From Candidatus Fimenecus stercoravium (GTDB lineage: Bacteria; Bacillota; Clostridia; Oscillospirales; Acutalibacteraceae): a stretch of 64,000 bases of DNA. Within the stretch, counting starts at the first letter, position 1. Each line of letters begins with the position of its first letter. Below are positions 34,216 through 48,984 of the stretch, piece after piece. The notes beneath the pieces are model-generated. The model did not search any database. It saw nothing but the letters and a program-made list of their open reading frames with translations, and was not told the origin of the DNA. The position numbers were made by a program, and so were the translations under genes. The stretch is taken from the NCBI GenBank assembly GCA_018711545.1, contig DVIC01000029.1, positions 900 to 64,899 on the forward strand, in the 5' to 3' direction.

Positions 34216-34856
34216 ACACGTGCCAAAACACACCGGTGCTCACAGAAGGCGATCTGCTTCTGCGGCGGTTTACCGAAGGCGATATTCCCGCGCTGTTCGC
34301 GCTTTATGCAGATCGGGAGATAAATAAATTTTTGCCGTGGTTTCCCTTGGAGACACAGGCGCAGGCTGAAGCACTGTTCCGGGAAAAGTATGAGACATTC
34401 TACCGAAACCCGGTCGGTTACCGTTACGCGGTCTGTTTGCAAGCGGATGATCTGCCCATTGGTTATATCCATTTGGAAACGGACGGCGCGCACGACCTCG
34501 GGTATGCCCTGCGGCGGGAATTTTGGGGTCAAGGCATCATGACGCGCGCGGCGCGCATGGTGCTGGCGCAGGCAAAGGCGGACGGCATGCCGTTTGTGAC
34601 CGCCACGCATGACCGCGAAAATCCGCGCAGCGGCGCCGTCATGCAGAGGCTCGGCATGCGCTACGCCTATTCGTACACGGAGCTTTGGCAGCCTAAAAAT
34701 ATCCCTGTGGTGTTTCGCATGTATCAGATCAGCTTTGATCCTGCTGCACCGCTGTACACCGTATATAAGCAGCAAGCAAAGCAGTGGTTTGTGGAAGAGC
34801 CCGTTCCGGCTTTCCAAACGCTGCACAATAAACGGGATGGGAAGGCGTTATTATGA
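34212..34856 (+). CDS. GNAT-family N-acetyltransferase (RimJ/RimL-like)
   Basis: LLLRRFTEGDIPALFALY...REFWGQGIMTRAARMVL. ATGA overlap with the rlmD stop. Confidence 0.85.
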   Translation: MNTCQNTPVLTEGDLLLRRFTEGDIPALFALYADREINKFLPWFPLETQAQAEALFREKYETFYRNPVGYRYAVCLQADDLPIGYIHLETDGAHDLGYALRREFWGQGIMTRAARMVLAQAKADGMPFVTATHDRENPRSGAVMQRLGMRYAYSYTELWQPKNIPVVFRMYQISFDPAAPLYTVYKQQAKQWFVEEPVPAFQTLHNKRDGKALL

Positions 34857-35554
34857 AAAACGGACTTGTAGAATGGAAAGGCGTCAAGGTCGAGACGCTG
34901 CGGCGTCTGGGCATTTCCCTGCTCACGGCGCTCGTCATCTTTTTATTTTGCATCTTCGCCCCGCCGCAGACGGAGCTGTTTGACAAGATCGGCATGGAGC
35001 TTGCCGTGCTTGTGATCGCACTTTTTCTTTGCCGCTTCCCGATCGGTACTTACTTAATGGTGAACCTGTTTCTGATTTTCCCCGCAGCGGGTTCGATTTT
35101 AAAGCTCTATGACCGTTTTCCGGGATATGACCGTGTGGTGCACTATATCAGCGGTCTGCTGCTCGGAGCGATCGGGATATATTTGATCGAATGGATCTTC
35201 AAGCGGCTGAGCCTGCCGCACGAGCCTTTTGTGGTGATCCTGTTCGGCGGCTTCTTTTCCTTTGCAGGCGCGGGATTTTGGGAGATCATTGAGTTTTTGA
35301 CGGACTGCATTCTGCACATGGGCGTCCAGCACGGCAATACCGACACCATGGGCGATATTGTGGCGGGATATCTCGGGAGTGTGAGCTTTCAGCTGTTCAA
35401 ATGCTTTGAATATCGAAAGTATTTTTCTCGCGAGCGCATACGGAACTTTTTCAAAGGGCAGCCTGCAAGCACCGACGGCGACCCGAACCCTGCCGCGGCA
35501 CAAGGCATTTCCGCCGAACACGAGACAGCAACAGCGGAACGCGGAGGCTCTTAG
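34853..35554 (+). CDS. polytopic membrane protein, family not recognised
   Basis: 233-aa ORF with about 6 hydrophobic segments. ATGA overlap with the upstream GNAT gene. Confidence 0.7.
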   Translation: MKNGLVEWKGVKVETLRRLGISLLTALVIFLFCIFAPPQTELFDKIGMELAVLVIALFLCRFPIGTYLMVNLFLIFPAAGSILKLYDRFPGYDRVVHYISGLLLGAIGIYLIEWIFKRLSLPHEPFVVILFGGFFSFAGAGFWEIIEFLTDCILHMGVQHGNTDTMGDIVAGYLGSVSFQLFKCFEYRKYFSRERIRNFFKGQPASTDGDPNPAAAQGISAEHETATAERGGS

Positions 35555-35579
35555 CAGATTTCACAACATATGCAATGCA

Positions 35580-35613
35580 CACACGGGCGCAGTCTAAGGA
35601 CTGCGCCCGTGTG
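35580..35613 (+). terminator. GC-rich perfect hairpin after the membrane protein gene (no clear U tract)
   Basis: CACACGGGCGCAGTC-taag-GACTGCGCCCGTGTG. Confidence 0.4.
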
Positions 35614-35627
35614 CGTATATCAAATCG

Positions 35628-35826
35628 GTTCAAGTTTTCGGCATTTCGCACAGCCACGGCTTTGCGCAGACCCACCTGCCCCACGTCTAACATCTAATAT
35701 CTAACGTCTAAAATCTAAAACGGCCAGCCGCAAGGGCTGTCCCTACGGATTGCGCGCATTTCGGCTTTCCTGCAAGCTTACCAATCCCGCGTCTGATATC
35801 TAATGTCTAACATCTAAAATCTAAAA
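35628..35826. repeat. composite repeat: two heptamer arrays flanking a CCCTAC hairpin box
   Basis: Array GTCTAAC ATCTAAT ATCTAAC GTCTAAA ATCTAAA (35685-35719); GGCCAGCCGCAAGGGCTGTCCCTAC (35722-35746); array GTCTGAT ATCTAAT GTCTAAC ATCTAAA ATCTAAA (35791-35825). Confidence 0.85.
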
Positions 35827-35851
35827 ATCGCCCCGTGCTTCCGCACGGGGC
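35821..35851 (-). terminator. intrinsic terminator closing the ten-gene surface operon
   Basis: Minus-strand GCCCCGUGC-GGAA-GCACGGGGC followed by GAUUUUUAG. It lies 69 nt after the stop of the last gene. Confidence 0.65.
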
Positions 35852-35919
35852 TAAATTAGATCTTACTTCATTTCTGTGCCGTGCGGCAAAATGCCGCGCG
35901 CGGCATGAAACGCCTTACC

Positions 35920-36873
35920 TTACACAGCGGTGTTTTCCTCTTCCTGCTGCTTCTTCTTTCTGCCCAGCAGGAAGAACAGGAACGGAATGCCGCCGAAGAT
36001 CAGCACGAGCGTTGCGCCCGCCGCCACGGGATATTCCCGGATCAGCGCACCGGTCTGGGTGATGATCGGGTTTTCCGTAATGGGCACTTCGGGCTCTGTG
36101 CCGGGGACAAGGGTAACGGTACCGTCGTCATTCACGACGAAGTCAAGCAGGATGCTTTCCGTGCCGGCAGGAACAGTCACAAGCTGTGTCCCGTCGGGGA
36201 GCTTCGTCACGGTGACTTCCGTTGCGGTCTCGCTTTCGGTCACGGAGAAATTCGCCGTGCCCGCCACCGTGCCGTCGGGGTCATAGACGGTCACGGTGTG
36301 GTAGCCGTCTTTGATGTCGTCCACGGCATATTCGCCGTCTTCGTTCGCAGCGGTCTCGATCTCGCCGAAGTCAAAGACCAGCCCCGCGTTCGGATACGGA
36401 TCGTCGCCGCGGTACACGCCGCCGCTTAAGGCGTAATGCACACATTCATCCGCGCCCTTGTTGGGATCCTCGGGGTCATATTCGGGATCAGAGGGGTCGA
36501 GGGGCTTCGCGTCCTCGCACTTTTGGAATGTAAACACGATGTCCACATTCGTATGCACGCCGGAAAGTATCAGCTGCCCATACTGCATCTGATCCGTCAC
36601 GTCCTCGCCGTTGACGGTGACGCTCTGGAGGTGATCCGTCGCCTGACAGATCACGCTGAGCGTAACGTCGTCAAAGCGTTCCACGGTAAGCGTCGCGCCG
36701 CTGGGCAGGACCTCGCCGCCATACAGGACATAACCGCCTTCGTTGTAAGTCACGGTAATTTCATGCTCGCCGGGTACGACCGTGCTTACCTCTACGCTGC
36801 CGAGTCCAAAGACGCCGAGCTGCATCGCGCAGCACAGCAGCAAGGCCAGCACGGCACTGCAAGCTTTTTTCAT
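35920..36873 (-). CDS. secreted protein with C-terminal TM anchor and basic tail (possible atypical sorting signal ITQTG); last gene of operon
   Basis: Signal peptide MKKACSAVLALLLCCAMQLGVFG. Beta-rich modules, including a CarboxypepD_reg-like YRGDDPYPNAGLVFDF...GEYAVDDIKDGYHTVTV. C-terminus ...PIITQTGALIREYPVAAGATLVLIFGGIPFLFFLLGRKKKQQEEE. Confidence 0.8.
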   Translation of the reverse strand: MKKACSAVLALLLCCAMQLGVFGLGSVEVSTVVPGEHEITVTYNEGGYVLYGGEVLPSGATLTVERFDDVTLSVICQATDHLQSVTVNGEDVTDQMQYGQLILSGVHTNVDIVFTFQKCEDAKPLDPSDPEYDPEDPNKGADECVHYALSGGVYRGDDPYPNAGLVFDFGEIETAANEDGEYAVDDIKDGYHTVTVYDPDGTVAGTANFSVTESETATEVTVTKLPDGTQLVTVPAGTESILLDFVVNDDGTVTLVPGTEPEVPITENPIITQTGALIREYPVAAGATLVLIFGGIPFLFFLLGRKKKQQEEENTAV

Positions 36874-36929
36874 GAAATCACCCCTTTCGAGTACTTCAAA
36901 GCCGTTTGTATGCTAAACAGTCGGCGTAC

Positions 36930-37412
36930 TTAAACGGCCGTATAGGTGACGGTGTAGGTCATGGTGCCGGTGTATTCGCCGACTGCAACGCCCTCGAAGG
37001 AAGAAACGGTCGCATCCAGATCTACGGTTTGGGAGGTCACATAGCCGGAGAAAGACTGCGCTTCAGTCGTGCCGGTAAGAGCGAAGGTCAGGGTGTCGTC
37101 GCCGACGGGATCCGTGTTCATCACGCCGCCGTCATTCGCAGCCGCAGCGACCTGAAGCGTCGAGCCTGCCACGAGGTTGCACGATACGGTGTAGTCGGCT
37201 GTGCCGCTGCTGGCGCCGTCGTTGTTCCACGGGATCGCAACGCTTGCGGGAACGGTCACGGTGTAAGTGTCATCCGCCGCATCCACAACGGTGTAAACGT
37301 CGATCGTTTCGGTCTGATCCGTATCCTGGGTGATGGGGTTCGCTGCAAAAGCAAGAACGCTGACAGAGAACATCATTACAACTGCAAGTGCTACTGCTAA
37401 AATCTTTTTCAT
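36930..37412 (-). CDS. small secreted paralog S7 (160 aa) of the operon-specific family
   Basis: MKKILAVALAVVMMFSVSVLAFA signal; YTVTVPASVAIPW...LTFAL...GEYTGTMTYTVTYTAV; own SD. Confidence 0.85.
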   Translation of the reverse strand: MKKILAVALAVVMMFSVSVLAFAANPITQDTDQTETIDVYTVVDAADDTYTVTVPASVAIPWNNDGASSGTADYTVSCNLVAGSTLQVAAAANDGGVMNTDPVGDDTLTFALTGTTEAQSFSGYVTSQTVDLDATVSSFEGVAVGEYTGTMTYTVTYTAV

Positions 37413-37460
37413 GGTTTTACTCCTTTATCAATTTCGATTTGTTCTGTTGAGCGCTTGTAC

Positions 37461-37934
37461 TCAAACGACTTCGACGGTGAAGGTCACGGTGTCGGTATAT
37501 GCCCCAACGGGGACGTCATCCCAGCCGGTGACCGCGATGGCCGTGGAACAGTTGGCGGACTCGACCTCGTCGGTCGTCACGTACGCCGCGTCTGCTGCAT
37601 CGCCCGACAGCGTGTACAGCAGGTTATCCGTGCCGTTGGTCAAGTTGCCGCTCGTCTTATTGAGCGAGATCTGAAGCTGCTCGCCAATGTTAAGCTGCGA
37701 GGTGTACGACCAGTTGATGGAGTCGCCGCCGGTCGTACCGTACCACGGAATGCTTACCGTAGCGGGGATCGTCACCGTAAAGTTCGCGGCAGGCTTGCCG
37801 TTTATGTCCGTCGTGAGGGTCACAACGTCAACCGGCGTTCGACCCGGCTGTGTAATGGTCTGGCTCGCAAAGGCGGGCACACAGACCGCGAACAGCATGA
37901 CAAGTGCAAGCGCAACAGAGAGAACCTTTTTCAT
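37461..37934 (-). CDS. small secreted paralog S6 (157 aa)
   Basis: ATG at 37934 follows AAAGGAG. MKKVLSVALALVMLFAVCVPAFA; FTVTIPATVSIPW...LLYTLSGDA...GWDDVPVGAYTDTVTFTVEVV. Confidence 0.88.
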   Translation of the reverse strand: MKKVLSVALALVMLFAVCVPAFASQTITQPGRTPVDVVTLTTDINGKPAANFTVTIPATVSIPWYGTTGGDSINWSYTSQLNIGEQLQISLNKTSGNLTNGTDNLLYTLSGDAADAAYVTTDEVESANCSTAIAVTGWDDVPVGAYTDTVTFTVEVV

Positions 37935-37973
37935 AGGCCTGCTCCTTTTCAAGAGTTATGTTGCGCCGTGCGA

Positions 37974-38459
37974 TCAGACGATGTCGACAACTTCGACCGT
38001 GAAGGTCAAGGTGTCGGAGTATGCCCCAACCGGAACATCGTCCCAGCCCGAAACAGCGATATTGATCGATTTCTCCGTCAAAGCGCAAACCGCCGCGCCG
38101 GTCGTGAACGCTGCGCCGACGGCATCGCCCGACAGGGTGTATGCCAGGTTATCCGTGCCGTTGGTCAAGCTGCCGCTCGCTTTGTCCACCGAGATGCTCA
38201 GCTGTTTGCCGGCTTCGAGCTGCGAAACATAAGACCAATCCAGCGTGTCGCCTTCGGTAGTGCCGCCCCACGGAATGTCTACGGTAGCGGGGATGGTCAC
38301 GGTGAAGCCTGCAACGGGGTTGCCGTCTTCATCGGTCGTCAGGGTCTGGAGCGTGGTGTCGCCCGTGCCGCCGTTGGTCGCGATATCCGTCGCGAACGCC
38401 GGAACACAGACCGCGAGCATCATAACGAGTGCAAGTGCGATTGCTAAAATCTTTTTCAT
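37974..38459 (-). CDS. small secreted paralog S5 (161 aa)
   Basis: ATG at 38459. MKKILAIALALVMMLAVCVPAFA; FTVTIPATVDIPW...LAYTLSGDA...GWDDVPVGAYSDTLTFTVEVV. It is the closest relative of S6. Confidence 0.88.
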   Translation of the reverse strand: MKKILAIALALVMMLAVCVPAFATDIATNGGTGDTTLQTLTTDEDGNPVAGFTVTIPATVDIPWGGTTEGDTLDWSYVSQLEAGKQLSISVDKASGSLTNGTDNLAYTLSGDAVGAAFTTGAAVCALTEKSINIAVSGWDDVPVGAYSDTLTFTVEVVDIV

Positions 38460-38526
38460 GGTTTTCCCTCTATTCATTCAGAAATTTTTTGTTGTACGCC
38501 AAAGCGCTTTGTTATGCGGTTTCGAT

Positions 38527-39006
38527 TTACACGTCCACGATCGAAGCCGTGAAGGTCAGGGTGTCGGAATACTCGGAAACAGGTGCTGCATCCCAAGCTT
38601 CCGTATCCACGCAAACGGTAAATGTGCAAGCCTGCGCATCCACCACGGGGCCGTCCATGACGGCGAAGCTGTTCTGGATCCAATACGCCAGCGTCAGGCC
38701 GTTTGTATCGGTCATCAAGAGGTCGCCGGTCGGATCATCCACATCTACGCGAACCGCCTTGTTCGGTGCAAGCTGCGAGGTAACGGTGTATTGGAAGTCG
38801 GTGCTGGTCGCGTCCCACGGAACGATGTTTTCCGCCGGGATGGAAACGGTGAAACCTGCGGCTTCCTCGCCGTCTTCGTTCTGCGTCGAAGTCCTGACAA
38901 CTGATTCGCCTGTACCGCCGTCAGCCGCAATATCTACAGCGAACGCCGGAACGCTGACCGCCAGCATCATGACGAGTGCGAGAGCAACTGCTAAAATCTT
39001 TTTCAT
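38527..39006 (-). CDS. small secreted paralog S4 (159 aa)
   Basis: MKKILAVALALVMMLAVSVPAFA; FTVSIPAENIVPW...LAYWI...EAWDAAPVSEYSDTLTFTASIV. Confidence 0.88.
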   Translation of the reverse strand: MKKILAVALALVMMLAVSVPAFAVDIAADGGTGESVVRTSTQNEDGEEAAGFTVSIPAENIVPWDATSTDFQYTVTSQLAPNKAVRVDVDDPTGDLLMTDTNGLTLAYWIQNSFAVMDGPVVDAQACTFTVCVDTEAWDAAPVSEYSDTLTFTASIVDV

Positions 39007-39043
39007 AGGTTTTCTCCTCTTTTCGGATTATGTCGTGCTGCTG

Positions 39044-39523
39044 TTAGATCGCAACAAGCTCTGCCGTGAAGGTCAGCTCGTCGGCATATTCCGAAACAAC
39101 AGCCGCATTCCAAGCCGCTTCTGCAACATTGACCGTGTAGGCAAACGCCTGTGCGTTTACAACGGGTGACGTTGTAATGCCGGTCGTATCCGCCAGCGTA
39201 TATGCCAGCGTGTAGTCGTTCTCGTCGGTCATCACATAAGCCTTGTCGGTATCATCCACCGTGACCTGCACGCCCGTGTTAGGGCCAAGCTGCGAGGTGA
39301 CGGTGTAAGTAAGGCTGGTGCTCTGCGCATCCCAATAGATTGTATTTTCCGCAGGGATGGTCACGGTAAAGCCTGCGCCGTCTTCGCCGCCTGCGGTCTG
39401 GGTAGAGGTCTTGATAATCGCCGTACCCGTGCCGCCGTCCGTTGTGATGTCTGCCGCAAACGCGGGAACGCAAACCGCCAGCATCATAACAACGGCAAGC
39501 GCCATAGCCAAAAGTTTTTTCAT
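39044..39523 (-). CDS. small secreted paralog S3 (159 aa)
   Basis: MKKLLAMALAVVMMLAVCVPAFA; ADITTDGGTG...FTVTIPAENTIYW...LAYTLADT...AAWNAAVVSEYADELTFTAELV. Confidence 0.88.
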   Translation of the reverse strand: MKKLLAMALAVVMMLAVCVPAFAADITTDGGTGTAIIKTSTQTAGGEDGAGFTVTIPAENTIYWDAQSTSLTYTVTSQLGPNTGVQVTVDDTDKAYVMTDENDYTLAYTLADTTGITTSPVVNAQAFAYTVNVAEAAWNAAVVSEYADELTFTAELVAI

Positions 39524-39559
39524 AATGGTTACTCCTCTCTAAGTGTTCTCAAGCAACGC

Positions 39560-40054
39560 TTACCCGACCAAGATCTCTGCCGTAAAGGTCAGGGTGTCGC
39601 TGTAAGTGCCGATCACGGCTTCGTTCCAGTCCTCTTCGGTCACAACCACATTCAGTGGAACGGTCACTGCCGGATAAACGTTGGGCTCCGTAGTCGCATA
39701 GTCCACGCCTTCGCCCATCAGCGCATACGGCAGGGGAAGTTCGACGCCCGCCTCAGGTGAATAGGACATGTAGCCCTGCTCGCCCGCTACGGTGACGGCC
39801 AGCGTCTCGCCGTAAGCAAGGTGGGTCTCCACCTCATAAGAGACGTCATAGGACGCTGCACCCCACGGGATCTCCTGATCCGCCGGGACCGTCACGGTGA
39901 AGCTTCTTGCATCATCGCCGCCGGAGGTCGTGGTCGCGGTCTTGATGATCACGGTGCCCGTGCCGCCGTCCGTCGTGATGTCTGCCGCAAAAGCGGGAAC
40001 GCACACGGCAAGCATCATAACAACAGCAAGCGCAATAGACAATACTTTTTTCAT
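39560..40054 (-). CDS. small secreted paralog S2 (164 aa)
   Basis: MKKVLSIALAVVMMLAVCVPAFA; ADITTDGGTG...FTVTVPADQEIPW...LPYALMGEG...EDWNEAVIGTYSDTLTFTAEIL. Confidence 0.88.
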   Translation of the reverse strand: MKKVLSIALAVVMMLAVCVPAFAADITTDGGTGTVIIKTATTTSGGDDARSFTVTVPADQEIPWGAASYDVSYEVETHLAYGETLAVTVAGEQGYMSYSPEAGVELPLPYALMGEGVDYATTEPNVYPAVTVPLNVVVTEEDWNEAVIGTYSDTLTFTAEILVG

Positions 40055-40092
40055 GGTCTTGCTCCTTTTATAAAGTTTTTTGACTTACGATT

Positions 40093-40545
40093 TTAAGCTG
40101 CGACATATTCGGCGGTGAAGGTCAGCACATCCGCGTGCCTGCCGGCAGCCGCCTGCGCCCACTGATCCTCGCTCACGGCAACGGACAGCGGGTAGACCGT
40201 GTCGATTGCGCCGGGCGCGAACACCATGGCGTCTGCCCCTGAAAGCGTATAGCCGATCGTCTTCGTTGCGTCCGCATCATTGACGAGGTTGAACGCATTC
40301 TGCGAATCGACCGTAACGCGTACGACGTGGTCATACGCAAGCTGCAGCTTGCTTGCCGTGACTTCCCCGAGCGCCTGTTCGGGCGCTTCCCAGGGGATCA
40401 CGGTGTCGGCGGGGATAGAGATCTCATAAGCTGCCTGGTCGCTTTGCGTGGAGATCTGCATGCTGCCGACGTCCTCTGCGAAGGCGGGCAGTGCGCAGAG
40501 CGCCAGCAGTACGACCGCCAGCCCCACGCAAATCATTTTTTTCAT
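40093..40545 (-). CDS. small secreted paralog S1 (150 aa), the most divergent member
   Basis: MKKMICVGLAVVLLALCALPAFA; YEISIPADTVIPW...IGYTLSGAD...DQWAQAAAGRHADVLTFTAEYV. Confidence 0.85.
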   Translation of the reverse strand: MKKMICVGLAVVLLALCALPAFAEDVGSMQISTQSDQAAYEISIPADTVIPWEAPEQALGEVTASKLQLAYDHVVRVTVDSQNAFNLVNDADATKTIGYTLSGADAMVFAPGAIDTVYPLSVAVSEDQWAQAAAGRHADVLTFTAEYVAA

Positions 40546-40618
40546 CCGACATCATCTCCTTTTTCGGAATTTCGTATTTTCATGGCGTATATCGTTAACC
40601 TTTTCAGGTGAACTTGCC

Positions 40619-43600
40619 TTACGGCGTTGTTGTGCCGTCCGAATAGGTGACGGTGTAGGTGATGGCGTCCGTCGCGCGGTATTCGCCGAGGGGTTTGCCC
40701 ACCCACTCGTCATCCTCTATTGTAACCGTGCTATAGCACTGAATCGAACTTCCCGCTCCCGGACCATAGTAAGTGGAGTCCAGATCACTGATGCTGCCGG
40801 AAATGGTATCCGTCGTGCCGGCGTTCGTCATGGTCAGGTTGTTGCCCTCCGCATCGACTGCGTTGGTCGCCGTCCCTTCCACTCGAAGCGTAGCGTCTGC
40901 GCTGAAGTTGTAGGAGGTCTCTGCGTAGTAATTGGTGGTTCTCGCGCCCCACGGGATCTGGACTTCCGCGTCCACCGTGACGGTGTAGAAGTCGCCGGTC
41001 GCGTAGTTGACTGTTAGCTGCTTTACATCGGTCGCTTCACGCAGGATGCCGTTGCGGTCGGTGTACTGGTAGGTGTAGGTCAGCGTCAGCGTATCGCTTA
41101 ATGCGCTGGTGGTCGGCTGTGCATTCGGGACCGTCACGTGCAGGGCGTTGTCCTGTCCCAGCGTTACATTGCTGATGGCTTGCCCGAACGTCACTGCGCT
41201 GCCGCCGAACGTAAGCGTGTACGGAAGGGTGATCGTGCCGTCTGCCGAGGTCAGATTGCCGCCCTTCGACGATGTGATTGTCAAGGTGCCCGTGCCGGAT
41301 GTGTCGGTCAGATAGCGCTCAAACTGTGTGAGTGTGTAAACGGGGTCGTTTGCGCTGTTGACCGCACCGGTCGAGGTGTCTCTATTGTCATACGAGAGAT
41401 CCATGGTGCTCGCCGACAGCGTTGCGGACACAGCGGGCGTCAGATCATACATCTGCTGGATGACGTCATAGAGCTCCGCTACGTCGTGGTAGGTAGCAAT
41501 GAGCGACTCATACTCGGCGATGGTGTTGAGGAGATTTGTGCGGTCGGTCGCCGTGAACGTGCCGTCTGCCATCTTCTGCGCGGCGTCCTCGTACTGCGCC
41601 TGATACTTATCCAAAAGCTGCACCACGCCGCCGTTCACCGGCTGACCGCTTGCATTGGTATAGGTATCGGTATTATTCAGCAGCTTTTCGCATGCCTCGG
41701 AGACATTTTCCACGCCGTCGCGGATGCTGCCGTCCGCCATGAGAACTTTGGCGAAGTAGTTGTTGTTCCGATTGAAATTGGTGAGTGCCGTTTCGAGCGT
41801 TGCAATATTTTCGTCGCTAACGGAAATAAAGAAGCCTTCATTGACCGTCGCACCGTTCTCCGTCCAGGAGCCGTAGGGCTTGGTCTTGTCGTAGGTACCG
41901 CTCGTCGGGTAGACGTTGCCGTCGCCCGCGACGCCGAGACTGCCCGTTGCCGCCCTGTCGGGATACAGCTGCGACATGGTCTGGTACAGGGCGTCTGTGC
42001 CGCCCGTATACAGCGAGCTCAAGAAGGTCAGCGACTGTGTGAGTGCGGGTTCGAGCGAAGCTACACAGCGCATCGCCGCATTGTAGGCGTTGAGGAACTG
42101 CCGGCTCTGCTCAGGGAACTGATCTTTTTGGCTCTGCGTCCATTTCGAGTAAGAGTTATTGTACCACTCGATGATCTGCGCCGCGCTCTCCGCCGTCAAG
42201 CCGTAGGCAGCATAGTTCACCGCGTCCGCCGTACCGTCCGTACCGTCCGTATCGACCACGCCGGGATACGGCAGGTCATATTCGCCGGAGGTATTGCCGT
42301 CCGCGACCGCCAACGTGCCGCTCAAGCCGAGATTGTCAAAATAGGTGTTAAAGAGTGTGGAGGGCGTCCATGCGGCTGTATAAGCCGAAATCTCCTCTGT
42401 GGTGGCGTTTTGATACGCCTGCAGCTGCGTGTACGCCTGCTGCGTAGAGTGGAAGCCCTTTTCCGCGTCGGTCAGCGCATTATACAACAACTGTGCATTG
42501 TTCAGCGCCTGCATGAACTCGGTGCTCCATGCCGTGCTGTTGGCGGCACTCGGTTCGAGCGCGGCAACGGCTTCTTCAAATTCGTTCTGGTACTGGGATT
42601 TGATGCCCAGCACTTCGCCGAAGGTCGAGTGAACCGTCGTACCCGTATTATAGTCCGACGTGTAGCCGAAGCCGATGTTGTCGATGACAAAGGTCTTGCC
42701 CTCGAGTGCGTCCGACGATGCAGCACTGTTGTCCGGGGCGATGCCGATGTTCACGCGGTAAATGCTGTTCAGCCCGGCTGCATATTCGCTGAGCTTGACG
42801 GCGCCCGTGCCGCCAGTGGTCGCCTGCGTCCAGTTGTCCTTGAACTGGTAGAGGGGGATCATGATATATCCCTCGTAGCCGGCGAGCGTCAGGCCGTTGG
42901 TCGTCACGTCGGAGCTAAAGTAGTTTGCGCCGTGCCCGCTGGCGGAGCAGTCGACCCACTCACCGGTGCGCATATCCATCAGATAGATGCTCTTATTGGC
43001 CTCACTGTCGCCCATGGCAAGGGTAAAGTCGTTCGTGCCCGAGCCGTCGCGGTGCGAGCCCGTTGTGATGGACGCGGTCAGCTTGAAGTCGGAAAGCTGC
43101 GAGAAGTCCGCGTAGAATACCAAACCGAGCGGGAAAGTGCTGCTCGCTGCGTTGCCGTTGGGACCCTCCAGCACATCGCCGAGGTTCACAATGCCCATGT
43201 TGTGCGTCATGGCATCGTTGTTATCGCCGTCCAGGGCGGAATAGCTGTCGAGCGAGACACTCAGGATATTATACATGCCGTTCCCGTTGCCGCCGCTGGA
43301 GCCGCTGCCGTTATAATACGAAGAATTGATGGCGACCGCAGCGCCGTGCGTCCCGTTAAAGCCCGCGTCCGTCACCGTCGCCTTGGTGCCGTTAATCAGC
43401 GTGTCCCCTCTTTCGGTGCCGTCCACGATGGTACCGTTCTGCATGGGATCGGCATAATTGCCCGCACTGGGACTGTTCGCATCCAGCTGGCTGTTGTCCC
43501 AAGTGCCGAGGAAGGTGCGGGTGGTGGAGCCATAGGTCAAAAAGCCCTTGGTATAGCGATAGTCGCCGTATCTCCACATACCGTTGGGGTCGTTTTCAAA

Positions 43601-46048
43601 CAAATCGGATTCCGTGCCGATTGAAAGCGATTCAAAATCGTTGAACAGCACAAATTTGTTGCGCGCCAGCGTGTTGCCCGCGACGTCTAAGTCGGTGCTC
43701 GAATCGACACCGACCAGGGCGACGTATTCGAGCAGCTTTTGCTCCTCCGCCAAAGAAAGCGCATTGAGCTGTGCCAAACTCAAACGCGTATAGAGCGAAT
43801 ATGCGCGAACGATCTCGGTCTCCAGCGCGTCGCTGACAGAGGAGACCGTAGAGGGATCGGGCAGCTTTTCAAGGGAACGCACCAGCTGCGCCACAAGCCC
43901 CGTAGCCCCTTCGTCCGCCGCGTTTTCATAGCCCGTGTCGTTGTTGGACGGATAGGTGTAGGTGCCGTCGTCATTTTGAATGATCGTGCCCGCTTCCACG
44001 CACAGGTCGCGCGCCGTGGTGAATTTTGCCCACACGGAGGTAAGCCCCAGCGACGCTGCCGTTGCGGCTAAATTCTCTTCCGAAAGGAAGTCGTTGCCGA
44101 CCGAGGAACCGGCGTAGCCCTGCCGGTAGCCGTCAAGCATCTCGGAAATATACTGCACCGCACGGTAATCGCCCTCGTCCGGGAAGGTGATCAGCGCATC
44201 GATCTGATTGAGGATCGCGCGCGGGATTTCGGTTTTCTGGTCGTAGTAATCGGTCAGCGGGAGACCGTACTCGCCTTCCGTCATGTCGTTCGGATAATTG
44301 CCCTCCGACTTATAGAACATGACGGAATCCATGTAAAAGCTGTGGTTGACGCTGTCGGCGCTCATGTTTGTGTATGAGAAGCCCGCGCCGCAGATGTCGT
44401 CAAGCGCCTTATAGCCGTTTTCGCGGTTTAAAATCACCGCGTTGCCCTCGGCATCCTTATAGACTGTACCGTCAGCGTTTAACTGAACATACGCTTTATT
44501 GGTCATATCCGTGTTGCAGTCGTCTCTGCTCGGTCCGACAGCAAGCATGGAAGCGCCCCAATTGGGCCTTTCCAAAGCCGCATAATGGTTCGCGCCCGTG
44601 CTCGGATAATCATTGTGATACGGCATGGTGTAAACACTGTTGTTCGGATTGCCGGTTTCCTCGTCTGCCGAACTGTTGCCGCCAAACTCATTTACATCTA
44701 CGTCTATGGAAAGCTGGCGGTATTGGAGCAGCAATGCTTCGGAAATCGGTGTGCCCGCCGGGTCAACCAGCACCTGTTCGCTCAACAGGACTTTATTGTC
44801 AAACTGTGCTTTTTTTCCACTCTCGTTGCCGCCGCCGAGATCTTCCGCCAAACCATTTCCGCCGAAGCCGAAGTTATCGTTGCGCGCTTCCGCATACGTG
44901 GGGGTCGTAGAACAGACAAATTGGACAGGCACACGGATATAGCCCTTGTAATTCGCAAGATCAATTCCGCCGTTTTCAAGCGCGACCGACTCCCACGAAC
45001 CGTCGTCTGCCTGAATATAGACATAGCCGTCGTTGCCCGTATATCCTTTGGTGGAATAGGTCACGGTGCTGTAGTCGTCATCATTGATAGAGCCATAGAG
45101 GTATACGACGCCCTGCCCCCACAAGTCGTCCCAATAGTATTCCTCGTACCGCTTGCCCTGCGTTTTCAGTTCAAAGGCAAGACCTTCGACCGAGACCTGG
45201 GAGAAGTCGAACCAGAACCAGATTTCCTCGGCATCCTCCGCGATCCAGTGCTGGCGTGACCATGTCGTGTTAAAGGACTGGTCGCCCGTGCCAACCACCT
45301 GGAAGCGATAGGCGCCCGAGCCGCCGTCGCCCGCATAGGGTGCCTGCCCGTAGAAGCTAAGCTGGTTCGCGCCCGCGCTGCTGGAAGCGATGTAATCCAG
45401 TCTGCCGCCGCCCGCGCCGTTGTCCGAAACATAGCCCATATTATTATTGTTCCGAGCTTCGAACATCAGCATTTCGCGCATGCCCGTCTCGTTTTCGACA
45501 AGCGGGGTATACGCTTCCTCGTCATATTCAAAGCGCGGTACGTCGGAAACGGTGGTCGTGATTGCGTCCGAGACCCAGCCGGTGCTGTCCTGTGCAAGGA
45601 CCTCCACGCTCAGGCGGTGCGTGCCGTCCATTGTGATGCCTGCGGACTCCAGCTGTTCTGCAGGGAAGGTCACTTCAAAGGTGTTCTCTACCGCGAAAGT
45701 GACCGCAGTCGCGTCCCGCGTGATCTTTGCGGAAGGCACATCCTCCGTCGCCGGGTCGTCGTGCACCTGTGTATACACCCCTAAGTCATACAGCGTTATG
45801 TAATAGGTCGCTATAGACTTGGTGATGTACTCGGTGTTCACGGTCGCCTCGGGAACGGAAACCGTCACATCCCCTTCCTCCGTTTCCCACGCCCACAGGG
45901 TCGCGTCCTCCGCGAACGTCGGGGTCGGGTCATACGTCCCCGCGCTCAGAGGTGCCGCAAGTGCCAGGGGCAGGGAAACCGCCACCAGAATTGCACTCAT
46001 CAAAAGCGCGGTGACACGTTTCCAGACTTTCAACCTCTTTTCTTGCAT
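40619..46048 (-). CDS. 1809-aa secreted multidomain giant protein ending in two tandem copies of the small-paralog domain; no recognisable wall or membrane anchor
   Basis: ATG at 46048 follows GGAAAGGAG. Signal peptide MQEKRLKVWKRVTALLMSAILVAVSLPLALAAP. Two internal similar beta-sandwich-like modules and helical segments. C-terminus ...FYTVTVDAEVQIPW...DEWVGKPLGEYRATDAITYTVTYSDGTTTP. No LPXTG motif and no terminal hydrophobic tail. Confidence 0.88.
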   Translation of the reverse strand: MQEKRLKVWKRVTALLMSAILVAVSLPLALAAPLSAGTYDPTPTFAEDATLWAWETEEGDVTVSVPEATVNTEYITKSIATYYITLYDLGVYTQVHDDPATEDVPSAKITRDATAVTFAVENTFEVTFPAEQLESAGITMDGTHRLSVEVLAQDSTGWVSDAITTTVSDVPRFEYDEEAYTPLVENETGMREMLMFEARNNNNMGYVSDNGAGGGRLDYIASSSAGANQLSFYGQAPYAGDGGSGAYRFQVVGTGDQSFNTTWSRQHWIAEDAEEIWFWFDFSQVSVEGLAFELKTQGKRYEEYYWDDLWGQGVVYLYGSINDDDYSTVTYSTKGYTGNDGYVYIQADDGSWESVALENGGIDLANYKGYIRVPVQFVCSTTPTYAEARNDNFGFGGNGLAEDLGGGNESGKKAQFDNKVLLSEQVLVDPAGTPISEALLLQYRQLSIDVDVNEFGGNSSADEETGNPNNSVYTMPYHNDYPSTGANHYAALERPNWGASMLAVGPSRDDCNTDMTNKAYVQLNADGTVYKDAEGNAVILNRENGYKALDDICGAGFSYTNMSADSVNHSFYMDSVMFYKSEGNYPNDMTEGEYGLPLTDYYDQKTEIPRAILNQIDALITFPDEGDYRAVQYISEMLDGYRQGYAGSSVGNDFLSEENLAATAASLGLTSVWAKFTTARDLCVEAGTIIQNDDGTYTYPSNNDTGYENAADEGATGLVAQLVRSLEKLPDPSTVSSVSDALETEIVRAYSLYTRLSLAQLNALSLAEEQKLLEYVALVGVDSSTDLDVAGNTLARNKFVLFNDFESLSIGTESDLFENDPNGMWRYGDYRYTKGFLTYGSTTRTFLGTWDNSQLDANSPSAGNYADPMQNGTIVDGTERGDTLINGTKATVTDAGFNGTHGAAVAINSSYYNGSGSSGGNGNGMYNILSVSLDSYSALDGDNNDAMTHNMGIVNLGDVLEGPNGNAASSTFPLGLVFYADFSQLSDFKLTASITTGSHRDGSGTNDFTLAMGDSEANKSIYLMDMRTGEWVDCSASGHGANYFSSDVTTNGLTLAGYEGYIMIPLYQFKDNWTQATTGGTGAVKLSEYAAGLNSIYRVNIGIAPDNSAASSDALEGKTFVIDNIGFGYTSDYNTGTTVHSTFGEVLGIKSQYQNEFEEAVAALEPSAANSTAWSTEFMQALNNAQLLYNALTDAEKGFHSTQQAYTQLQAYQNATTEEISAYTAAWTPSTLFNTYFDNLGLSGTLAVADGNTSGEYDLPYPGVVDTDGTDGTADAVNYAAYGLTAESAAQIIEWYNNSYSKWTQSQKDQFPEQSRQFLNAYNAAMRCVASLEPALTQSLTFLSSLYTGGTDALYQTMSQLYPDRAATGSLGVAGDGNVYPTSGTYDKTKPYGSWTENGATVNEGFFISVSDENIATLETALTNFNRNNNYFAKVLMADGSIRDGVENVSEACEKLLNNTDTYTNASGQPVNGGVVQLLDKYQAQYEDAAQKMADGTFTATDRTNLLNTIAEYESLIATYHDVAELYDVIQQMYDLTPAVSATLSASTMDLSYDNRDTSTGAVNSANDPVYTLTQFERYLTDTSGTGTLTITSSKGGNLTSADGTITLPYTLTFGGSAVTFGQAISNVTLGQDNALHVTVPNAQPTTSALSDTLTLTYTYQYTDRNGILREATDVKQLTVNYATGDFYTVTVDAEVQIPWGARTTNYYAETSYNFSADATLRVEGTATNAVDAEGNNLTMTNAGTTDTISGSISDLDSTYYGPGAGSSIQCYSTVTIEDDEWVGKPLGEYRATDAITYTVTYSDGTTTP

Positions 46049-46210
46049 CGTCTGAAAGCTCCTTTCCGATTTTGGATTCCGGAGGCCGCAGCCCCGGTCT
46101 ACGAATACCGCCAAAGGCGGAGATATTTGACAAAGTTTGCTTGGATACTGTTTCGTCGGATACGATTGGGCGGGTTTCTGCGCGCCCACGGCTCCTTTGA
46201 AAACCTGATG

Positions 46211-46275
46211 TTTTCTGCTGTAGGGGCGGGGCTGTGCAAAAATTTAATCGTTTTCACAGCCGAAAGTCACCCGGT
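46211..46275. repeat. fragment of the REP-like element inside the operon (between gene 1 and the giant gene)
   Basis: CTGTAGGGGCGGGGCTGTGCAAAAATTTAATCGTTTTCACAGCCGAAAGT matches 47973-48030 and, in reverse complement, 30085-30110 and 60500-60535. Confidence 0.7.
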
Positions 46276-46325
46276 TCATCCGCTTACGCCTGTTCGCGGG
46301 GAAATCGTTTTTCGCTTGCCCCGCC

Positions 46326-47141
46326 TTATTCCGCTTCTTCCGCGATGATGACCGTCTTGAAATCCATTTTGTTCAAGGGGCGCTGCTCGCTGTCAAAGCT
46401 GAAGGTGTCAAAATGCACCACGACGTCATATTCGCCCGCGTCGAGCGCCCGATCCAGCGTGAAGCGGGAGATCGAATAGCCCGGCGGCAGCAGATCCGAC
46501 GTATAGATCGTTTCGCCCGTGTCGGACAGGGTGATCGTGATCCGGAAATAGCAGGGGTTGACCTCGGGGTTGGAGAATATGTAATTCTGCTCGAGCTGCC
46601 CTGCGACGAAGTGCATTTCCGTAATGCCCGTGAACTTAATGTTCGCGCCGGCCGTGTCGATATGCTCGGGGACGTCCAGCTCCCCTTCGCCGAGCTGCGC
46701 GTTCGGGTCGACCACGCCAAGCGGCGCGGTGGTGGTCTCCGGCTGTGTGCTCGCTTCGACCGCCGCGCGGATGCCGAACGCAAGACCTGCGATGAGCGCC
46801 AGCGCCAGCAGCGCGAGCAAGATCCACAAAAGCAGCGTGTCGCGCATGACGGCGATATAATCGTTGCCGCCGACGGGCACGTAGCCCGCCACGCGCTTGT
46901 GCGCGAGCTTCGCGACACTGTAAACGATCTCCTCGCCCTCGCCGCCCGACGAAAGCGTACCGAGCTGCTCGCGTCCCGCGCCGATCTGCCCGCGGACGTT
47001 GAACCCGCCCGACGGGTACAGCGTCTTCATATCCTTGCGCTTGATATAGGAAACGGTAAAGTTTGCAGAAGAATTGTTATACGTCCCGCGCGCCTCGCCC
47101 GCGCCCGAATAATCTGCATGAAACAACAGGGGTTCTGCCAA
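46326..47141 (-). CDS. bitopic membrane protein (cytoplasmic ~100 aa, one TM, extracytoplasmic ~145-aa beta-rich domain); first gene of operon
   Basis: TTG start lies 7 nt after GGAGGT. TM is TLLLWILLALLALALIAGLAFGI (aa 102-124). The external part reads ...NPEVNPCYFRITITLSDTGETIYTSDLLPPGYSISRFTL...GEYDVVVHF. Confidence 0.75.
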   Translation of the reverse strand: MAEPLLFHADYSGAGEARGTYNNSSANFTVSYIKRKDMKTLYPSGGFNVRGQIGAGREQLGTLSSGGEGEEIVYSVAKLAHKRVAGYVPVGGNDYIAVMRDTLLLWILLALLALALIAGLAFGIRAAVEASTQPETTTAPLGVVDPNAQLGEGELDVPEHIDTAGANIKFTGITEMHFVAGQLEQNYIFSNPEVNPCYFRITITLSDTGETIYTSDLLPPGYSISRFTLDRALDAGEYDVVVHFDTFSFDSEQRPLNKMDFKTVIIAEEAE

Positions 47142-47208
47142 GTTGAATACCTCCGAATTCGGTGAAAATAGAAAATTGCGACAATAACCCTATAATTAGG
47201 GATGTATT

Positions 47209-47238
47209 ATTATACCGTCTGCGGAAACAATTTGTCAA
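47209..47238 (-). promoter_or_regulatory. near-consensus sigma-A-type promoter of the surface operon
   Basis: Minus strand reads TTGACA (47238-47233)-18 nt-TATAAT (47214-47209), in a visibly AT-rich 47.16-47.39 kb spacer, ~65 nt upstream of the TTG start. Confidence 0.55.
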
Positions 47239-47493
47239 TAAAATATTAAAAATTTATCGGAAAAAAACACTTATTTTTCGCGGATTGTCGTTTCTAACTG
47301 AGCGATTTGCACAAAGTTCGATGAAGTTTTTTCACAAATCATTCAAACGCCTTGCATTTTATGCACACAAACCGGCAGCGCGCGCCGCAGGGGGTTGGGC
47401 GTGCCGCCGCCGGTTTGCGCCCAGCATCGGACATTTGTGCCCGGTACCGACAAAAGAGCAAGAAACGCAACAAAACGTTACAATAAAGTCAAG

Positions 47494-47727
47494 GTGATAG
47501 GTTTGGTTGGGCTAAAAGAAATCCGCAAGCGCCGGGGCTTGAATCAGCAGAAGGTCGCCATGGACTTGCACATCACGCGCGAAGCGCTCTCGCAGTACGA
47601 GAACGGCAAGCGGGAGCCGGGGCAGAAAATGCTTATTCGTATGTCGGAATACTTCGACGTGTCCATTCAATATCTGATCACAGGGCACGAATTCCAAAAG
47701 AAGCATCCCGACCCGCCCCGGCATTAA
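47494..47727 (+). CDS. XRE-family helix-turn-helix transcriptional regulator (~77 aa), divergent from the surface operon
   Basis: LKEIRKRRGLNQQKVAMDLHITREALSQYENGKREPGQKMLIRMSEYFDVSIQYLITG is a typical HTH_3 domain. Start is GTG 47494 or TTG 47503. Confidence 0.85.
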   Translation: MIGLVGLKEIRKRRGLNQQKVAMDLHITREALSQYENGKREPGQKMLIRMSEYFDVSIQYLITGHEFQKKHPDPPRH

Positions 47728-48174: not shown

Positions 48175-48984
48175 TTACAGCGTCGTGATGTCCACGTACC
48201 ACTGCATGCCGATCTTCACAAGCGTACAGGTGTAGTCATACGCCTCGCCGTTCGCTGTGTAGCTGTAAGTAACCTCACACACGTCCGCAACGGCGTCCGG
48301 CGAAAGGCCGAACTGCGCATAGGTCGCGCGCGCCTTGTCGGAGAGCGCATCGCGGTACGCGGCGGTCTCCGCATCGGAGTATTCGCGCGTCACTTCCACC
48401 GAAGTCTGCTCGGCGTCCACGCCGTTTGCGGCGCTGTAGACGGCCACACTCGCTTCAAAACAGGTGACAAGGTCATCCTCCACCGCGCTCAGCGCCGGCT
48501 CGCCGAACACCTGTTCATAGGTCTCGACATATTTCGCCACATACAGCGTCAGCACCGTATCCAGTGTCTTGTCGGTGTTGCTCGCGATGATGTCGGCATA
48601 ATACGCGTCCATCACGTCGGACATCTGATGTTCGAGCGCCCCGAGTTCTTCGGGCGTGCGCTCCGTCGTGCTTTCGCCCTCAGGCAGGACGGGCTTGATG
48701 TAATTGTCGCGGAAATAATTGCCGAGATACAGGTTTTGGATAAGCGTTGTGTATTTCAGTGAGTTGAAATCGTCCTTGCCCACGACCGCCGAAGCACAAT
48801 ACTGCTCGGCGACGCGCTCGGGATAGAACATGATGTACCGCGAACGGAAATAGGTCGCGCTCACGGTGACGAGAAACGCGACGACCAGGAGGATCGCCAC
48901 AGCCATATAGCCTTTGTCAAAGCGCGCGGTGGTCATGTCCTTTTCGACGATCTCTTCCGCCGGTTTTTTTGCTTTCTTCGCCAT
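48175..48984 (-). CDS. N-terminally membrane-anchored protein, family not recognised
   Basis: 269 aa. Lys-rich N-terminus, then TM YMAVAILLVVAFLVTVSATYF. SD GGAGGAGG lies within the end of the upstream transporter gene (3-nt gap). Confidence 0.7.
   Translation of the reverse strand: MAKKAKKPAEEIVEKDMTTARFDKGYMAVAILLVVAFLVTVSATYFRSRYIMFYPERVAEQYCASAVVGKDDFNSLKYTTLIQNLYLGNYFRDNYIKPVLPEGESTTERTPEELGALEHQMSDVMDAYYADIIASNTDKTLDTVLTLYVAKYVETYEQVFGEPALSAVEDDLVTCFEASVAVYSAANGVDAEQTSVEVTREYSDAETAAYRDALSDKARATYAQFGLSPDAVADVCEVTYSYTANGEAYDYTCTLVKIGMQWYVDITTL

Follow-up and report, generated by a model that had tools for sequence, protein, structure and literature searches.

A minus-strand operon of ten genes in Candidatus Fimenecus stercoravium, an uncultured member of the Clostridia represented by a chicken-gut metagenome-assembled genome (MAG), may encode a new family of Sec-dependent cell-surface assemblies held together by β-strand complementation, and we give this model, taken as a whole, a probability of about 0.5. 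The operon (35920-47141) lies in a stretch of 64,000 nucleotides (nt) from contig DVIC01000029.1, which is called the window here. Its products are, in order, a membrane protein (P1), a giant protein, seven small proteins (S1-S7), and a last protein, P10 (Table 1). The operon is real, conserved, and unannotated. We have fairly high confidence in the general reading that its products form a surface assembly, and put the chance that this assembly is a true donor-strand fiber at roughly a third to a half. A preliminary description of this DNA had proposed a heteromeric surface fiber or complex in which the giant is held by co-assembly with the small subunits. This proposal is supported by two pilin-like structural models, by the homology of the last domain of the giant (D2) to the small subunits, by a strand predicted to complete the preceding domain (D1) in cis, and by a layout kept across divergent lineages.

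The ten consecutive open reading frames (ORFs) of the preliminary description are all present at their positions between a promoter and a terminator, and the gaps derived from their coordinates are 36-277 nt. Each gene was said to have its own Shine-Dalgarno (SD) sequence, and a purine-rich SD was actually found 6-10 nt 5' of all ten starts, that of P1 being GGAGG. The promoter TTGACA-18-TATAAT (47238-47209, minus strand), which is located ~60 nt upstream of the P1 start, agrees with the sigma-70 consensus at 12 of 12 positions and is the best-scoring site in the region. The intrinsic terminator (35821-35851, minus strand) was also found as described, consisting of a hairpin (35851-35830) with a 9-bp stem, of which eight pairs are GC, and a 4-nt loop, followed by a T-run. 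Sec signal peptides are present on all nine products other than P1, and no cytoplasmic-type domains were found in these nine.

The seven small proteins are paralogous, as had been noted, with pairwise identities of 26-49%. They share a Sec signal peptide composed of MKK, a hydrophobic run, and an AFA end, and the mature subunits are ~135 aa (amino acids) in length. A reading of these proteins as lipoproteins was rejected, because the Cys of the signal peptide is not conserved (it is Ser in S4 and S7) while the AFA site is nearly invariant. The signal peptide is followed by a conserved N-terminal strand-like motif, phi-phi-x-T-x-T (VIIKTATT, AIIKTSTQ, TLQTLTT, TIDVYTVV). At the other end, S1-S7 as well as D2 of the giant stop 0-6 residues past an F-strand-like motif, (Y)-S-D-T-L-T-F-T-x-E-V.

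Structure prediction followed by a Foldseek search had been suggested as a check, and its outcome is the first of the results that point to a pilin-like fold. The AlphaFold2 model of S5, which was built from 52 sequences and compared with the PDB by Foldseek, has a mean predicted local distance difference test (pLDDT) score of 87.9. Chaperone-usher pilins or pilin domains of tip adhesins made up 28 of its 29 best PDB matches, including the PapG pilin domain, FimA, CsuE, the FimH pilin domain, FimF [template modeling (TM) score 0.58], Caf1, EcpA, and PapA, with a cannulae chain at rank 27. The E-values of these matches were 0.009-0.3 and the probabilities 0.25-1.0 (≥0.8 for the first 25). Six of 52 members gave sub-threshold Pfam matches to DUF4402 (best E 0.02), and SCPU was likewise matched below threshold (E 0.0098-0.15); we take both to be fimbrial-clan families. 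No papers on DUF4402 were found in the literature.

Counted as representatives at 50% identity, the small-subunit family is large, comprising 2429 at E ≤ 1e-3 and 572 at E ≤ 1e-10. The domain is also found at the C-terminus of orphan BspA-type leucine-rich repeat (LRR) proteins of ~460 aa. Two of these, both of 462 aa (locus L015, 10001-11389; locus L016, 3934-5322), carry LRR_5 (E 3.8e-87) and a C-terminal small-subunit domain. They belong to a cohesin-encoding genome and have no small-subunit array nearby, and in L015 two sortase genes are located ~8 kb upstream.

The giant starts with a Sec signal peptide and matched nothing in Pfam or among the PDB sequences. Its relatives form 369 clusters at E ≤ 0.001, and the best 120 of these 369 are 45-99% identical, nearly all full-length, and free of any Pfam domain. 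The giant was described as ending in two copies of the small-protein domain. This holds without difficulty for the last copy, since D2 (residues ~1686-1807) is a clear homolog of the small subunits when compared with their profile by hhalign (probability 98.5%, E 3.2e-15, 113 columns), but the first copy is strongly diverged, and D1 matched the small family weakly by the same method (probability 27-61%, best E 8e-5).

The evidence for D1 comes from a second, independent AlphaFold2 model, which covered giant residues 1480-1809 and consists of a long helical hairpin, a confident D1 (pLDDT mostly ~90 or above), and a poor D2 (pLDDT 32-45). The top Foldseek matches of this model were chaperone-usher pilins, eight of them at E ≤ 1e-3. 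The best matches of D1 were CfaE (E 1.4e-4) and self-complemented CsuA/B (E 1.4e-4; TM score 0.57), and further ones were the CfaE-CfaB fusion, donor-strand-complemented EcpA and AggA, as well as self-complemented PsaA, FimA, and CssA at E 0.001-0.007. D1 carries an F-like motif, LSDTLTLTYTYQYT, followed by a hairpin and then LREATDVKQLTVNYA, and the motif strand and LREATDVKQLTVNYA are its last two strands. The segment QLTVNYAT of the giant aligns with the N-terminal strand of S1-S7, and in the AlphaFold2 model it forms the final strand of D1 and pairs with the F-like strand. Engineered self-complemented pilins, the best structural matches of D1, have this same topology. The low pLDDT of D2 was not used as evidence for an open groove, because poor alignment of this hypervariable region would explain it equally well. 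The N-terminal part of the giant contains two weakly similar beta-rich modules, and an internal duplication there was rejected because of weak support (probability 44%).

P10 was previously described as ending in a transmembrane helix and a KKK tail. Both are there, but this description was incomplete and missed a conserved sortase-type sorting signal. The C-terminus of P10 follows the pattern PII(T/S)QTGA, ~8 residues, a hydrophobic stretch, and RKKK; the motif reads IISQTG in a 55%-identical clade and IPITG in the 50%-identical homolog of locus L046. Judging from the sequence, this C-terminus has the tripartite layout of sortase sorting signals. From its N-terminus, the protein carries a signal peptide and an Ig-like N-domain, which a Pro/Asp/Thr-rich linker joins to a second beta domain (weak matches to CarboxypepD_reg- and SdrD_B-type models); a stalk and the sorting signal follow. 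In each of the nine related loci that continue beyond the small-subunit genes, the array ends with the P10 gene. Because no sortase signature (TLxTC) was found in the long ORFs of the 64-kb window, a housekeeping sortase encoded elsewhere would be needed, and otherwise the transmembrane helix would anchor P10. The sorting signal indicates that P10 probably fastens the structure to the wall or membrane. The linker itself (residues 119-143; 36445-36519) is rich in Pro, Asp, Glu, and Thr and is bracketed by two invariant Cys residues. Its length ranges from ~24 to ~75 residues in the homologs of loci L011-L014 and L046 by means of PTTDPDE-type repeats, and such variability is as expected of a putative wall-spanning spacer.

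In P1, a single transmembrane helix separates a conserved cytoplasmic N-terminal part of ~100 aa from an external domain of ~150 aa. All related loci that reach upstream of the giant have P1 before it, with a gap of 29 nt in the distant clade. The P1 family is narrow, comprising 59 clusters with a functional name in none of them. P1 may be a membrane-tethered assembly factor. When signal peptides were removed, no pilin-like domain was detected in P10 or P1 by hhalign.

The layout of the operon is conserved. A survey of the same neighborhood in related genomes, another check that had been proposed, gave the order of giant, 5-7 small subunits, and anchor in every sufficiently long related locus. 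The complete related loci keep the whole order of P1, giant, small subunits, and anchor at giant identities from 44% to 85%, and remoter members of the small family are found in partial arrays of like form (L046, L048). The related loci belong to MAGs of uncultured Clostridia, Eubacteriales, and Oscillospiraceae and to Ca. Fimenecus excrementavium. A scan of a genome collection with two narrow peptide patterns gave five loci, by which taxonomic breadth is under-sampled. The gene neighborhood differs between the close and distant clades. The precomputed Pfam families of neighbors in related contigs were only MFS transporter, XRE, GNAT, RNA methyltransferase, GGGtGRT, PadR, and YkuD, and in the distant clade the operon adjoins an alpha-L-arabinofuranosidase gene and a LytR_cpsA_psr gene.

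The sequence of the operon varies in a mosaic manner. In comparison with locus L009, protein identity is 97-98% for P1, S1, P10, and the flanks, 73% for the giant, 77% for S2, and 39-50% for S3-S7, and the DNA is unalignable over D1-D2 of the giant and over S3-S7. S1 is 97-99% identical among close strains, even where S3-S7 have been replaced. More generally, the ends of the giant and S3-S7 are 25-55% identical between strains in which P1, S1, and P10 are 97-98% identical. The variable parts of the giant are residues 200-600 and 1500-1809, and the identity in residues ~200-600 drops to 33-74% against strains with 93-100% identity elsewhere. For residues 300-500, the identity to the distant clade (L013) is 79-82%, in comparison with 33-68% for other segments, and since this is the closest segment to that clade, the comparison suggests an exchange of domain cassettes between lineages. 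Such mosaic variation would be expected for exposed surface parts under selection.

The spacer between P1 and the giant (46049-46325) also varies, measuring 277 nt in the window, 29 nt in the distant clade, ~1.4 kb in L001 (2522-3984), and ~0.8 kb in L004 (3225-4028) and L009, where a DUF559-type ORF was called. This spacer is a variable insertion site within the operon.

We propose the following assembly for a host that is presumably monoderm. S1-S7 would be pilin-like Ig-fold subunits, and the N-terminal strand of one subunit would be inserted into the open groove of the subunit before it, by which a short heteropolymeric fiber or stalk would be formed. The giant would be the distal cargo or adhesin, with D1 as a pilin fold completed in cis by its own following strand and D2, in which no strand follows the F-like motif, as an open acceptor for the first small subunit. 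P10 would end the structure at the cell, where it would be held by its sorting signal or, if uncleaved, by its transmembrane helix, and P1, tethered to the membrane, would replace chaperone and usher as an assembly or holding factor. From the data described above we infer the surface location, the strand exchange in trans, the order of the subunits, and the roles of P1 and P10. A narrower claim, that the operon encodes the first chaperone-usher-type pilin-fold fimbria in a monoderm, assembled by donor strands without usher or chaperone, tipped by a giant, and sorted by a sortase at its anchor, is tentative, and we would sooner doubt it than assert it.

Several points weigh against the strand-complementation model. 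No Pfam pilin family was reached at threshold, and the structural evidence consists of AlphaFold models throughout, with a best E-value that is marginal for S5 (0.009) and modest for D1 (1.4e-4). D2 is poorly modeled, which may reflect only a poor alignment of a variable region. The orphan LRR fusions, located far from operons of this type, suit a wall-binding module no less well than a fiber plug. P10 and P1 are without homology to the small family, and their proposed roles come from position and topology. In addition, the organism is uncultured and the case is a computational one.

The most serious competitor to this model is a non-fibrous complex of the WxL type, in which the small domain would be a module for docking or for non-covalent wall binding, by which the giant and the orphan LRR proteins would be displayed, P10 would play the part of WxLIP and tether the modules to the membrane, and no polymer would be formed. 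Actually, the WxL/Csc clusters are the closest known system in layout. We obtained 29 genuine WxL clusters via the DUF916 motif and confirmed them by Pfam as WxL, WxLIP_PGBD, and WxLIP_HBD. In the fetched clusters, a large protein of 1100-1640 aa with a C-terminal docking domain is followed by 2-4 small single-domain paralogs, and the cluster ends with a WxLIP protein of ~340-360 aa that has Ig-like domains, a transmembrane helix, and an RRKKK tail. The resemblance to Csc/WxL pointed out in the preliminary description is therefore confirmed, the gene order and composition being the same as in WxL clusters L017-L044, as a matter of architecture and not of homology. The WxL trio has been described, with a DUF916 strand insertion into WxL predicted by AlphaFold (PMC9772566, PMC10599100), and a strand-insertion contact is proposed for our system, too. 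Both systems have a Firmicute host, Sec-exported products throughout, LRR-bearing members, an LPXTG-type element in the cluster, a large protein ending in the small-protein domain, and an anchor of ~320-370 aa with Ig-like domains, a transmembrane helix, and a basic tail. On the other hand, the operon proteins contain no W-x-L motifs, the mature small subunits are ~135 aa instead of ~180 aa, there are 5-7 small paralogs instead of 2-4, the bitopic P1 is extra, the sorting signal is carried by the anchor protein itself, and the host belongs to the Clostridia, while 99% of Firmicute WxL sequences are in Bacilli (PMC9772566).

Homology to the WxL proteins was rejected. WxL (PF13731) gave no match at E ≤ 1 in the ten proteins and is absent from the 25 most-matched Pfam families listed for 150 relatives (52 scanned at E ≤ 10 and 98 at E ≤ 0.1), and no match to Pfam WxL, WxLIP_PGBD, or WxLIP_HBD was obtained in the ten proteins or, among the families listed, in the 150 relatives. 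In hhalign comparisons with 41 small WxL proteins and 10 C-termini of large WxL proteins, the small family gave signal-peptide or 16-column matches with probabilities of 1-55%, while the positive control, small against large WxL, gave 97.6%. The 16-column local similarity lies on the last strand (VGxYxDTLTFT vs VGDYQGTLSWQL). P10 had no Pfam match to DUF916 (PF06030) or DUF3324 (PF11797), and matched 23 WxLIP proteins by hhalign only in the transmembrane helix and basic tail. We note in passing that a genuine large WxL protein of 1642 aa (L019, 2531-7459) has no Pfam match at E ≤ 0.001 while its C-terminus matches small WxL at 97.6%, indicating that the Pfam WxL model misses the large-protein form of the domain. 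The shared gene order, the published trio with its predicted strand insertion, the orphan LRR proteins bearing the domain away from operons, and the local similarity confined to the last strand all speak for a WxL-type complex. However, the homology is undetectable by Pfam or hhalign with a positive control, and 5-7 small paralogs with fold matches to polymerizing pilins suit a chain better than a 1:1:1 complex, so that we consider the WxL-type complex rather unlikely. A two-dimensional coat (S-layer-like or a sheath) or a matrix scaffold of small Ig-fold proteins seems very improbable to us, because neither SLH, CWB2, nor TasA/Peptidase_M73 was found in the Pfam/NCBIfam scans and because the strict layout of one giant and one anchor, together with a cis-completed giant domain, points to a polar, tipped structure. 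Small secreted beta-sandwich paralogs that are hypervariable among strains are also typical of surface layers, and TasA-type matrix fibers are a precedent, as monoderms build these donor-strand polymers without a dedicated secretion machine. Finally, the operon might encode a secreted carbohydrate-directed set that acts mostly off the cell, with the small proteins as soluble binding modules. This idea is favored by the alpha-L-arabinofuranosidase and LytR_cpsA_psr genes beside the distant-clade operon, by the two weakly similar beta-rich modules in the N-terminal part of the giant, and by the carbohydrate use for which Csc/WxL clusters were first proposed (PMC1534035). We regard it as very improbable, since no catalytic or carbohydrate-binding module family was found in the ten proteins by Pfam/NCBIfam, the neighborhood is not conserved between clades, and the P10 sorting signal and the P1 transmembrane helix would bind the system to the cell.

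Returning to the strand-complementation model, we compared the operon with other fiber systems. Usher and PapD-type chaperone domains, the absence of which had been noted before, are indeed absent from the ten proteins and from the neighbors in the close and distant clades. The likeness to chaperone-usher systems consists in the predicted fold and size of the subunits (AlphaFold2 models, best TM score 0.58), several pilin paralogs with a two-part tip protein ending in a pilin-type domain, the F-strand-like C-terminal motif with a candidate N-terminal donor strand, and best fold matches that are self- or donor-strand-complemented pilins. The operon differs from them in that the host has no outer membrane, judging from its taxonomy, in that anchoring would be via a sorting signal or transmembrane helix, and in that the giant is five to six times the size of FimH or PapG. 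With TasA, archaeal bundling pili, threads, and cannulae it would share Sec-exported subunits and usher-free strand donation outside a single membrane, as proposed here. It differs from these in that the subunit fold is chaperone-usher pilin-like and the structure would be heteromeric, with a giant tip and a dedicated anchor. A TasA/CalY system was rejected, as there was no Peptidase_M73 in the Pfam/NCBIfam scans and no SipW-type signal peptidase among the neighbors.

Sortase-assembled pili resemble our system in having a monoderm host and a basal component with an LPXTG-like sorting signal. They were rejected because the sorting signal is on P10 only and no TLxTC sortase is encoded in the window, and they differ in fold, CnaA and CnaB not being among the fold matches except for one weak BcpA match (rank 42, giant model). 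The endospore appendages (ENAs) S/L-ENA and F-ENA are defined by DUF3992 or DUF4183, lack signal peptides, and are made in the mother cell (PMC12357932). These were also rejected, since P10 matched Enas at E 0.55 only, DUF4183 was unmatched, and all subunits have Sec signals. Type IV pili were rejected because the signals are ordinary Sec signals and not of the prepilin type, and an assembly ATPase or platform is not found in or beside the cluster.

The family-model search proposed in the preliminary description gave nothing above threshold for the ten proteins against Pfam and NCBIfam. The same was true of Pfam on the 150 family members, so that Fimbrial, SCPU, and DUF4402 are absent above threshold from both sets, and no match was obtained between PDB sequences and the profiles of the small-subunit family and the giant. 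In GenBank, P10, P1, and S1 are identical to HIS04708.1, HIS04717.1, and HIS04715.1, respectively, all three of which are listed as "hypothetical protein", and database sources gave no functional name for any of the ten proteins. The literature on donor-strand systems in Gram-positives contained nothing matching the small-subunit family. The supposition that the family is undescribed thus stands, as there is no Pfam, NCBIfam, or PDB sequence match and no name, and the WxL/WxLIP profile tests were negative with a working control.

The surface structures of uncultured gut Clostridia are almost unknown, yet they govern adhesion, aggregation, and recognition by phages and the immune system. The small subunits represent a large unannotated family with a fixed operon grammar and clear indications that cassettes are replaced between strains. 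If the donor-strand model is true, pilin-fold donor-strand assembly would reach from diderm chaperone-usher systems to monoderm Clostridia, which bears on fiber formation without an usher and on the origin of the pilin fold. In that case, WxL-type clusters might be distant relatives in a functional sense, and the model offers a structural rationale for these similarly organized, mechanistically unclear clusters. Possible uses include the domain as a display or anchoring module and the variable modules as strain markers in metagenomes.

Table 1. Genes, domains, and signals of the ten-gene operon and its divergent neighbor (positions in the window).
Feature	Position	Strand	Remark
P1	46326-47141	-	271 aa, TTG start
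Giant	40619-46048	-	1809 aa counted from ATG
Giant residues ~200-600, exchangeable variable module	44249-45451	-	strain identity comparison
Giant D1, residues ~1539-1684, pilin-type fold predicted to be completed in cis	40997-41434	-	AlphaFold2 and Foldseek
Giant D2, residues ~1686-1809, small-subunit homolog ending at F-strand-like motif	40622-40993	-	hhalign
S1	40093-40545	-	150 aa
S2	39560-40054	-	164 aa
S3	39044-39523	-	159 aa
S4	38527-39006	-	159 aa
S5	37974-38459	-	161 aa
S6	37461-37934	-	157 aa
S7	36930-37412	-	160 aa
P10	35920-36873	-	317 aa
P10 sorting signal: ITQTG, ALIREYP, hydrophobic stretch, RKKK, acidic tail	35920-36063	-	motif at 36049-36063
Divergent XRE-family helix-turn-helix (HTH) regulator, candidate regulator outside the structure	47395-47727	+	HTH_3, HTH_19, HTH_31 on orthologue

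The XRE-family regulator is kept at its divergent position in all six close-clade loci that reach far enough upstream and is not present at the distant-clade loci. A short inverted repeat, CCCTA-TAAT-TAGGG (47188-47201), is situated between the promoter of the operon and a divergent promoter-like site and contains the TATAAT of the latter. This repeat is a possible operator for the divergent regulator; its arms are 5 bp long, and chance could explain it. A gene upstream of that for XRE (48175-48984) encodes a membrane protein of 269 aa with an N-terminal anchor and no Pfam hit. This protein is kept at 72-98% identity in all five close-clade loci extending that far, and at the matching place the distant clade has a 264-aa protein unrelated to it (BLASTP E 16). 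On the other side of the operon, the interval of ~875 nt that separates the terminator from the GNAT gene (34766-35640) is unalignable to related strains, in which the gap there is ~300-500 nt, and most of it is filled by an ORF for a 233-aa multi-pass membrane protein (34853-35554, plus strand).

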